DNA from: Escherichia coli
Lineage (GTDB): Bacteria; Pseudomonadota; Gammaproteobacteria; Enterobacterales; Enterobacteriaceae
Strand: one strand, 5' to 3'
NCBI RefSeq assembly: GCF_003334305.1
Contig: NZ_QOWS01000003.1
DNA: 64,000 nucleotides
The notes beneath the pieces were generated by a model. That model did no database searches. It was not told the DNA's origin and was given only the letters and a program-made list of their open reading frames with translations. Both the position numbers and the translations under genes were made by a program. Below, piece after piece: positions 54,412 through 55,800 of this stretch. The number at the start of each line of letters is the position of its first letter. Position 1 is the stretch's first letter.

Positions 54412-54603
54412 AGTTTAACCCAATAAAAATAAAGTAATTATACATTTGTTTAATACCACTCTCTTCTTACGTGCGCAAGCGACTTATAAAGTAATAAAGT
54501 TTTTGCCAGCCTATTACTGATAAGAGTATTGTAACGTGGCAGAACATTTTACTGTCTGTATATATAAATTATATCAATGGATTTTTTAATTCAGGGAATT
54601 TTT

Positions 54604-55800
54604 ATGGCTCAAGTTATTAATGAAATGGATGTTCCGTCCCATTCGTTTGTTTTTCATGGTACAGGTGAGAGATATTTTCTTATTTGTGTGGTGAATGTGT
54701 TGTTAACGATTATAACGCTAGGTATCTATTTGCCATGGGCATTAATGAAATGTAAGCGTTATCTCTATGCTAATATGGAAGTTAACGGACAACGATTTTC
54801 TTATGGAATTACTGGTGGGAATGTTTTTGTTAGTTGTCTTGTTTTTGTTTTTTGCTATTTCGCAATCTTAATGACAGTGTCAGCAGATATGCCACTTGTT
54901 GGCTGTGTTTTGACTTTGTTACTGTTGGTTTTGCTTATATTTATGGCAGCAAAAGGACTGCGTTATCAGGCCTTGATGACCAGTCTCAACGGCGTAAGAT
55001 TTAGTTTTAATTGCTCTATGAAAGGGTTCTGGTGGGTAACCTTTTTCTTGCCGATTTTAATGGCCATTGGGATGGGGACTGTTTTCTTTATCTCGACAAA
55101 GATGCTACATGCCAATAGTTCAAGTAGTGTTATTATATCTGTGGTTCTGATGGCAATAGTTGGTATTGTTTCCATTGGTATTTTTAATGGTACTTTATAT
55201 AGCCTGGTAATGAGTTTTCTCTGGAGCAATACCAGTTTCGGTATACATCGTTTCAAGGTGAAATTAGATACTACGTATTGTATAAAATATGCCATTCTCG
55301 CATTTTTAGCTTTATTACCTTTTCTCGCTGTTGCTGGTTATATTATCTTCGATCAAATATTAAATGCGTATGATAGTTCTGTGTATGCAAATGATGATAT
55401 TGAGAATTTACAGCAATTTATGGAAATGCAACGTAAAATGATAATCGCGCAGTTAATCTATTATTTTGGGATTGCTGTTAGCACCAGTTATTTAACGGTG
55501 TCGTTGCGAAATCATTTTATGAGCAACCTGTCACTGAATGATGGGCGTATTCGTTTTCGCTCAACTTTAACGTACCACGGTATGCTTTATCGCATGTGTG
55601 CGTTGGTGGTGATATCCGGGATTACGGGCGGTCTGGCTTATCCACTGCTGAAAATATGGATGATTGACTGGCAGGCAAAAAATACGTATTTGCTGGGCGA
55701 TTTGGATGACCTTCCTTTAATCAATAAAGAAGAACAACCAGATAAAGGCTTCTTAGCCAGGATTTCACGGGGAATTATGCCTTCTTTACCATTTCTGTAA
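54604..55800 (+). CDS. yjgN: DUF898 inner-membrane protein
   Basis: 398-aa multi-pass membrane protein from ATG 54604 (MAQVINEMDV...); AT-rich gene; ORF-track start 54577 is nine codons upstream. Confidence 0.85.
   Translation: MAQVINEMDVPSHSFVFHGTGERYFLICVVNVLLTIITLGIYLPWALMKCKRYLYANMEVNGQRFSYGITGGNVFVSCLVFVFCYFAILMTVSADMPLVGCVLTLLLLVLLIFMAAKGLRYQALMTSLNGVRFSFNCSMKGFWWVTFFLPILMAIGMGTVFFISTKMLHANSSSSVIISVVLMAIVGIVSIGIFNGTLYSLVMSFLWSNTSFGIHRFKVKLDTTYCIKYAILAFLALLPFLAVAGYIIFDQILNAYDSSVYANDDIENLQQFMEMQRKMIIAQLIYYFGIAVSTSYLTVSLRNHFMSNLSLNDGRIRFRSTLTYHGMLYRMCALVVISGITGGLAYPLLKIWMIDWQAKNTYLLGDLDDLPLINKEEQPDKGFLARISRGIMPSLPFL

Follow-up and report, generated by a model that had tools for sequence, protein, structure and literature searches.

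The yjgN gene of a 64,000-nucleotide stretch of Escherichia coli DNA (contig NZ_QOWS01000003.1, assembly GCF_003334305.1; called the window below) encodes a DUF898 inner-membrane protein and lies between the core genes yjgM and valS. We consider it likely that the allele carried here is a foreign homologue that replaced the ancestral Escherichia yjgN in place, in a conserved and GC-poor slot. This reading follows from the conservation of the slot, the sharp breakpoints around the gene, the presence in E. coli of two allele classes with only 42% protein identity, the conflict between gene tree and species tree, and the lower synonymous divergence of the window class relative to the flanking DNA. 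The event is best read as replacement of a resident homologue, with no new gene gained. An earlier note, made from the sequence alone, had described yjgN and its upstream region (54412-55800) as AT-rich and had suggested that the tabA-to-yjgN stretch is a mosaic of older acquired insertions interleaved with core genes.

Two allele classes occupy the same position in E. coli

We surveyed 5426 complete E. coli genomes, all of which match the yjgM-valS region. The yjgN class of the window, referred to as type-1, was found over at least 80% of its length in 4598 genomes (~85%), and the full-length copies sampled were all at least 98.0% identical. A second class, type-2, annotated as "YjgN family protein," occupies the same position in 794 genomes (~15%), including Nissle 1917; the RefSeq symbol yjgN is given to the type-1 class only. 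One class or the other fills the slot in 5392 genomes (~99%), and the remaining few include copies disrupted by insertion sequences (IS).

When the window was compared with the type-2 haplotype of locus L001, identity per 100 bases fell to 41-72% inside a block of about one gene (Table 1), with 96-100% identity on the valS side and through rraB and 85-96% over most of yjgM. On the left the block begins within the 5' end of yjgM, and on the right it stops inside the yjgN-valS terminator; both edges are sharp, identity passing from below 0.65 to above 0.95 at ~54300 and ~55855, as in a replaced segment. No mobility gene or tRNA gene is annotated at the block, and a search for flanking direct repeats gave only chance-level matches of 14-19 nt and the terminator hairpin.

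Disrupted copies take several forms: codon 144 of yjgN in strain LR-64-2 is an internal stop (L086:3693-4889), the gene of strain SCPM-O-B-7615 carries two IS5-family (ISKpn26) insertions (L002:5704-8629), and that of strain CMZE123 carries an IS1 insertion. IS elements between yjgN and yjgM have been described in Shigella sonnei (PMC12795559), and yjgN::tet serves as a neutral linked marker (PMC9544173). Given this use as a neutral marker, the internal stop, and the IS insertions, yjgN is dispensable. Other mentions of the gene in the literature are incidental, namely, a non-specific CusR peak in systematic evolution of ligands by exponential enrichment (SELEX) and a hit in a Caenorhabditis elegans dauer screen.

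According to a preprint (10.64898/2025.12.08.692488), clade C of sequence type ST131 "gained" yjgN, bdcAR, yjgH, and chpBS and lost arcA, argF, and arcC. To pangenome software, a type-1 haplotype recombined into a type-2 background would look like this. Where the window has bdcAR, yjgH, and yjgL, Nissle and WP5-S18-ESBL-09, both type-2, have arcA and a tabA homologue beside argF.

The yjgM-valS slot is conserved across the Enterobacteriaceae

A genome scan with two peptide patterns and one genome per species recovered 526 stretches encoding a DUF898 relative, of which the best 80 loci were used. The usable enterobacterial loci (n = 34) came from Superficieibacter, Citrobacter, Intestinirhabdus, Phytobacter, Pluralibacter, Kosakonia, Mangrovibacter, Atlantibacter, some Enterobacter, and four other Escherichia species. 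The yjgN homologue adjoins yjgM in all 34 and lies between yjgM and valS in 28 of the 29 loci that reach valS, the exception being the rearranged locus L027; the orientation yjgM (-), yjgN (+), valS (-) is constant in every enterobacterial genus recovered. Identity to the window proteins was 91-100% for ValS, 93-100% for PepA, and 72-91% for YjgM, compared to 31-66% for YjgN, so that a diverged homologue sits at the same position between conserved flanks. No empty site was seen in relatives, all enterobacterial loci recovered being occupied. Since the homologue stands beside yjgM throughout and the flanks are conserved, the slot is at least as old as the sampled enterobacterial genera, and yjgN is not an insertion. 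Nor is yjgM an acquired gene; its normal GC content (0.514) and its conservation across genera mark it as core.

Some database entries looked mislabelled. A 301-bp contig named "Caballeronia mineralivorans" codes for part of a protein with 97% identity to type-1 YjgN of E. coli, a locus of "Chryseobacterium sp. 18061" has the enterobacterial gene order, and the YjgN of a metagenome-assembled genome labelled "Citrobacter sp. HRGM_Genome_0066" matches the E. coli type-2 protein at 99% identity.

The type-1 allele does not group with other Escherichia alleles

In the YjgN tree, all 200 bootstraps join type-1 to the two Superficieibacter alleles (63-65% identity). An equally well supported clade (200 of 200) unites type-2 with its counterparts in E. 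albertii (85%), E. whittamii (92%), and two other Escherichia species (86% and 94%), and the other Escherichia species sampled carry type-2 only. Monophyly of Escherichia was recovered in 0 of 200 bootstraps, placing the gene tree in conflict with the species tree. By phylogeny, the window allele is thus foreign to the genus Escherichia, and on this point the horizontal origin proposed in the earlier note holds. A protein search returned nothing more than 66% identical to type-1 outside E. coli and Shigella; this search was not exhaustive, and because it also failed to return type-2 alleles, it is no evidence that any taxon lacks the gene.

Between type-1 and type-2, nonsynonymous divergence (dN) is 0.54 and synonymous sites are saturated, compared to a synonymous divergence (dS) of ~0.45 between the type-2 alleles of E. 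coli and E. albertii. Judged by these distances, the split between the classes is far older than the genus Escherichia. Among E. coli strains, dS of type-1 was 0.016-0.056, compared to ~0.12 for valS in the same strain pairs. Likewise, O157:H7 and the window are 98.8% identical in yjgN and 97.1% identical in valS, and valS identity is 97.0-98% in most E. coli genomes, below the range of type-1 yjgN. The lower synonymous divergence of type-1 fits a common ancestor younger than that of the flanking core DNA.

Signs of exchange at this position were also seen in other genera. Two strains of C. amalonaticus carry yjgN alleles only 34% identical, and in two Phytobacter loci (L009:5938-8566 and L018:6001-8582) the yjgM-valS interval holds a tandem pair of yjgN homologues, of which the second, different in class from the first, is nearly identical to the allele of Kosakonia sp. 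S29 (dN 0.019, dS 0.31). Low-identity AFDB homologues from four more enteric taxa, given below, point the same way.

Altogether, these results suggest the following course of events. The yjgM-valS slot would always have held a weakly constrained, GC-poor gene for a DUF898 membrane protein, and homologous recombination in the conserved flanks would swap this gene between lineages. Type-1, from an unsampled donor, would have displaced the ancestral Escherichia type-2 gene, which would persist in ~15% of E. coli genomes and in those further Escherichia species that the scan recovered.

Selection on yjgN appears relaxed

The ratio dN/dS was 0.15 among the type-2 alleles of the genus Escherichia and 0.14-0.56 among type-1 alleles, compared to 0.014 for valS and 0.055 for yjgM. 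These values suggest that purifying selection on yjgN is relaxed but real, approximately 10-fold weaker than on valS. A segment-by-segment scan of the type-2 alleles found no dN/dS above 1 except in 11 N-terminal codons, and positive selection was not detected.

These data bear on the possibility that the polymorphism is ancient and balanced, i.e., that old YjgN classes have been traded among Enterobacteriaceae under balancing or frequency-dependent selection and that the type-1/type-2 split is functional, for example, with YjgN serving a phage, colicin, or contact-dependent toxin as its target or point of entry in the inner membrane. The coexistence of two classes in both E. coli and C. amalonaticus, the alleles common to different genera (Phytobacter copy 2 and Kosakonia), and the sharp block edges would all be expected under such selection. 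The linked yjgM is also unusually diverse (dS of 0.17 within type-1 strains, in addition to the divergence between haplotypes given above), and further low-identity AFDB homologues occur in E. fergusonii (38%) and a Salmonella enterica serovar (43%). However, dN/dS does not exceed 1 in any segment other than the 11 N-terminal codons, the putative periplasmic loops are only a few residues long in a model whose topology was assigned from charge, neither allele matches known defence-system models, the other Escherichia species sampled have type-2 only, and the 85:15 split could reflect a single replacement followed by later recombination. We regard balancing selection as an unlikely explanation, though slightly less so than the other alternatives to replacement in place.

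Low GC is a property of the slot

GC content at 54412-55800 is 0.361, compared to a mean of 0.513 for the 64-kb window, 0.514 for yjgM, and 0.547 for valS (z = -3.6; 1.7% of 1389-bp sliding windows are equally low), in agreement with what the earlier note had seen by eye. A 500-bp scan of the window found GC below 0.43 for more than 1 kb in two blocks only, yjgL (50.3-52.5 kb) and yjgN. The spacer between yjgM and yjgN (54412-54603) has a GC content of 0.281 and the yjgN coding sequence (54604-55800) one of 0.374, compared to 0.529 ± 0.027 in 44 other window genes (z = -5.7); GC at first codon positions is 0.411 (z = -4.5 against the same genes). At third codon positions (GC3), yjgN has 0.365, far short of the 0.627 that its amino acids would give under the codon usage of the window (binomial p = 6e-26), and an index resembling the codon adaptation index was 0.52 versus 0.68. 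The rare codons TTA (18 of 54 Leu) and ATA (10 of 36 Ile) are in excess, TTT is likewise over-used, and CTG is under-used (11 of 54 Leu). By both measures that the earlier note had proposed, windowed GC and codon usage, yjgN departs from the window average, with the atypical base composition and codon usage of a genomic island.

The same deficit was found wherever the slot was sampled. All 32 comparisons (30 other loci and the two E. coli alleles) gave the homologue a lower GC content than the neighbouring valS, with a mean deficit of ~10 points in GC and ~16 in GC3 that correlates with host GC3 (r = 0.69); amino acid usage (FYMINK versus GARP) also varies with GC among the YjgN homologues. 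Type-2 is itself GC-poor (GC 0.417, GC3 0.439, spacer 0.333), and the window allele has the lowest GC of 37 homologues. Because the deficit is present in every comparison, low GC belongs to the slot as such, with the window allele as the most extreme case. For the same reason AT-richness alone, which the earlier note had read as a sign of foreign DNA, is a weak sign here: the composition is atypical indeed, but so is that of every homologue in all genera relative to its neighbour.

A universal deficit that follows host GC3 is what purely vertical descent would produce, in which yjgN was always here and evolved fast under relaxed constraint, AT-biased mutation lowered its GC, and no transfer took place. 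The elevated dN/dS, ~10 times that of valS, the shift of amino acid usage with GC, and the loss of a peptidase partner (see below) agree with such a history. On the other hand, the conflict between gene tree and species tree has the support of all 200 bootstraps, and classes with 42% identity meet within one species at sharp breakpoints between flanks that are 96-100% identical. Moreover, a dN of 0.54 at a dN/dS of 0.15 would need a dS of ~3.6, compared to the ~0.45 measured between E. coli and E. albertii, and type-1 synonymous diversity lies below that of the flanks. Descent without transfer is accordingly improbable.

Lower still stands the view of the earlier note, that yjgN and its promoter are an old acquired island inserted between yjgM and valS and unadjusted to the host. 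The strongly atypical GC and codon usage of yjgN, an H-NS site in the spacer, and the nearby yjgL, which is such an insertion, speak for it; synteny contradicts it, slot and orientation being the same in all enterobacterial genera of the scan and ~99% of E. coli genomes carrying one allele or the other. Furthermore, the block is marked by neither a tRNA nor a mobility gene and has no repeats of note at its flanks, and an insertion as old as the family should by now match the composition of its host. We consider insertion of an island very unlikely.

Finally, that the T-rich codons of a hydrophobic membrane protein alone make yjgN AT-rich can be dismissed with near certainty as a sole explanation: the AT skew is indeed strongly negative (-0.21 to -0.28) and the GC predicted from the YjgN amino acids alone is 0.480 versus 0.535 for an average gene, but amino acid composition accounts for only ~0.055 (~1/3) of the GC deficit of 0.154 and synonymous choice for ~0.10 (~2/3), GC3 is far below expectation, the non-coding spacer is more AT-rich still, and membrane-protein status is not the cause, since seven other membrane proteins of the window (ytfF, ytfT, yjfF, treB, mgtA, lptF, and lptG) have GC3 of 0.60-0.70.

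With replacement in place, the AT-richness of yjgN would have more than one source. Hydrophobic amino acid composition supplies its third of the deficit; the foreign synonymous codon usage of the imported allele would supply another part, the pattern being plain and its cause presumed; and a locus-wide low GC may arise because expression is low and selection on codons weak at a promoter that H-NS binds.

Replacement in place weighed and compared with known systems

Several points weigh against the replacement that we favor. No donor lineage of type-1 was found; because its best relative outside E. coli shares only 63-66% identity and synonymous changes have reached saturation, both the direction and the timing of the transfer are inferred from the tree and the diversity argument. 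The lower synonymous divergence of type-1 comes from four strains and BLAST identity bands, and the distribution of the two classes within E. coli is given by genome counts. The scan, with its two peptide patterns and best 80 loci, does not establish absence from particular genera, and AFDB holds homologues from C. rodentium (44%) and K. aerogenes (34%) besides those of E. fergusonii and Salmonella mentioned above. In addition, the GC deficit is universal and tracks host GC, so that part of the AT-richness could have arisen in place, and the evidence for H-NS binding is in vitro SELEX from the literature.

Hypervariable loci replaced between conserved flanks are known in E. coli, examples being the O-antigen cluster (galF-gnd) and the hsd "immigration control region." The yjgN locus resembles them in its conserved flanks, sharp breakpoints, deep classes that do not follow the species tree, low GC, and recombination in the flanks. 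Unlike these loci, it is a single 1.2-kb inner-membrane gene with almost no predicted periplasmic exposure and no known selective agent, only two classes were seen in E. coli, and positive selection was not detected. A second likeness is to the H-NS-silenced, AT-rich "xenogeneic" genes of Navarre et al. (2006), as cited in PMC3946193, with which yjgN shares an AT-rich promoter and body, an H-NS SELEX site, and codon usage foreign to the host; it differs in that it replaces a resident homologue and adds no new DNA, and its silencing by H-NS is presumed.

YjgN is a DUF898 protein with a confident structural model

RefSeq annotates yjgM, yjgN, and valS at this locus and places the yjgN start at 54604, with an in-frame ATG lying upstream at 54577. 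The window YjgN is 100% identical to WP_000079641.1 of strain E2863 ("YjgN family protein") and belongs to DUF898 (PF05987; E = 1.9e-47, residues 13-369), a large family with 6990 cluster representatives at E <= 0.001 when searched with a profile of the enterobacterial members. An AlphaFold model based on a 133-sequence alignment (predicted local distance difference test, 94.5; predicted template modelling score, 0.89) shows the repeated DUF898 architecture of beta-hairpins alternating with helical hairpins. Two short hairpins bear the conserved TLGIYxPW and GLAYP turns, and three further hairpins are long. Of the family motifs N31, T38, G40, Y42, and W45, the first and last are invariant in the alignment and the rest nearly so. 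Because Lys and Arg are concentrated beside the strands of the model, the sheet is predicted to lie on the cytoplasmic side. The turns of the long hairpins, then directed towards the periplasm, would each span just a few residues.

A structure search found no solved structure like the model beyond generic helical hairpins, a fold search of AFDB50 returned DUF898 proteins only, and neither yjgN allele matched NCBIfam or the defence-system models of PADLOC. Between the two classes, the beta-strands and the first short hairpin are best kept (50-83% identity) and the three long hairpins least (26-36%).

Enterobacterial yjgN lacks the M48 peptidase gene that follows DUF898 elsewhere

In 22 of 23 non-enterobacterial loci from Gamma-, Alpha-, Beta-, and Epsilonproteobacteria and Bacteroidota (L041-L082; e.g., L041:7134-8243 and L073:6948-8006), the DUF898 gene is directly followed, on the same strand and at 0-22 nt or overlapping, by a gene for a DUF7092+Peptidase_M48 protein of 335-405 residues. 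The DUF898 members of these operons share with YjgN the fold and the motifs, including an (I/L)TLG(I/L)YxPW turn and its C-terminal echo GLAYP. By our own observation such a partner is typical outside the Enterobacteriaceae; no match to it was found in the enterobacterial loci L005-L040 or in the 64-kb window, where yjgN instead ends at a terminator shared with the convergent valS.

From gene order, DUF898 and M48 look like a conserved two-gene unit, and with the M48 gene absent from the enterobacterial loci and the window, the enterobacterial yjgN would be an orphan of that unit. Loss of the partner may explain the relaxed constraint on yjgN. The arrangement also points to a membrane zinc peptidase as a possible working partner of DUF898 proteins.

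The yjgN promoter lies in an AT-rich spacer bound by H-NS in vitro

The 192-bp spacer between the divergent yjgM and yjgN has counterparts of ~150-230 bp in 28 of 35 loci and is AT-rich (GC 0.27-0.50) in all 35. A sigma-70-like promoter for yjgN, TTGCCA-18-TATTGT, was found by consensus scan, and the same hexamers are given for yjgN by Shimada et al. (2014; PMC3946193). Since consensus matches in the region were no more numerous than in shuffled sequences, this assignment rests on the published SELEX table. In the same genomic SELEX study, RpoD holoenzyme and H-NS bound the yjgM/yjgN spacer in vitro; the H-NS binding data to which the earlier note had pointed as a check thus do include a site here, and silencing of yjgN by H-NS would be consistent with it.

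Downstream, a GC-rich hairpin is the likely bidirectional terminator of yjgN and valS; it is kept in both haplotypes, and genomes of the other allele class show a 35-nt exact match there. An Rfam scan of 53800-56000 gave only sub-threshold matches, at the 3' end of valS. One of them is to the Salmonella small RNA STnc40 (55807-55878, minus strand; 28.5 bits versus a gathering threshold of 45; E = 0.027), and it may reflect an RNA derived from the 3' untranslated region or just the terminator hairpin.

Table 1. Positions of the yjgN locus and related features in the window
Feature	Position	Strand	Remarks
Divergent haplotype block	54300..55855		Identity per 100 bases to type-2 L001, 41-72% inside
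yjgN coding sequence	54604..55800	+	Type-1 allele; DUF898 inner-membrane protein, 398 aa; GC 0.374, GC3 0.365; RefSeq, Pfam
yjgM	53908..54411	-	GNAT acetyltransferase; core left flank, always divergent from yjgN; GC 0.514
valS	55856..58711	-	Core right flank; GC 0.547
Promoter spacer, yjgM-yjgN	54412..54603		Divergent; 192 bp; GC 0.281
Sigma-70-like yjgN promoter	54503..54532	+	TTGCCA-18-TATTGT; consensus scan and PMC3946193
GC-rich hairpin	55809..55834		Likely bidirectional terminator of convergent yjgN and valS; kept in both haplotypes
yjgL remnants	50619..52179	+	Three open reading frames (50619-51593, 51609-51962, 51922-52179); GC 0.326

The wider tabA-valS stretch contains a true insertion

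The lowest-GC stretch of the window (0.29-0.33) is yjgL, which is split into three open reading frames here and is an intact "protein YjgL" in O157:H7. It was found at 80% coverage or more in 4384 of 5426 E. coli genomes, with 80-100% identity, and is absent from the loci examined in other genera, where tabA adjoins argI. Thus, yjgL is a true insertion between tabA and argI, specific to E. coli (E. coli and Shigella), hypervariable, and decaying. It has been described as icaR/gem3, regulated by MxiE in Shigella, and is reported to be associated with H-NS, with a "promoter island" (PMC3661553). It resembles yjgN in being AT-rich, H-NS-associated by report, and hypervariable among E. coli, and differs from it as a presence/absence insertion does from a replaced resident. 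The mosaic proposed in the earlier note therefore survives in part: the stretch is a mosaic within E. coli and yjgL is an acquired insertion in it, but yjgN is a replaced resident and yjgM is core.

The gap between rraB and yjgM also varies. In Superficieibacter it holds miaE (L005:3698-4453; NCBIfam, 422 bits) and ~1 kb of further DNA; miaE encodes the tRNA ms2io6A hydroxylase. E. coli has no miaE at this place, the two genes being 46 bp apart (window 53862 and 53908), and the gap is similar, by size only, in most loci of other genera. Type-2 haplotypes have ~130 extra bases between rraB and yjgM (L001 2832-3007) relative to the window, where the gap contains a 14-nt inverted repeat (53873-53906), probably a shared terminator.

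Elsewhere in the window, yjgH (47996-48391) and bdcR (49306-49899) have GC3 of ~0.39 and a low codon adaptation index at a GC of ~0.48-0.50, which makes them another patch of unusual codon usage; both are among the genes reported to differ between ST131 clades in the preprint cited above. A low-GC patch at 3901-4900 (minimum of 0.37 in 500-bp windows) lies near a structural difference from strain E2863 (92% identity, shifted coordinates).

Implications

The yjgN gene, its AT-richness, and its H-NS site are already on record, as is replacement in place at hypervariable loci. As far as the searchable literature goes, the family-wide slot, the 42% dimorphism, the affinity to Superficieibacter, the universal GC deficit, and the missing M48 partner appear to be new.

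Low GC is a common quick sign of an acquired insertion, and at yjgN it misreads the event, in which transfer probably replaced a resident gene. Where pangenome pipelines count the two alleles as separate genes, one "gained" and one "lost," as for the ST131 clades, an allele swap may be taken for a change in gene content. For the biology of YjgN itself, the two natural allele classes, a confident model that has no solved relative, and a peptidase partner elsewhere that hints at function offer handles on this protein and its family.

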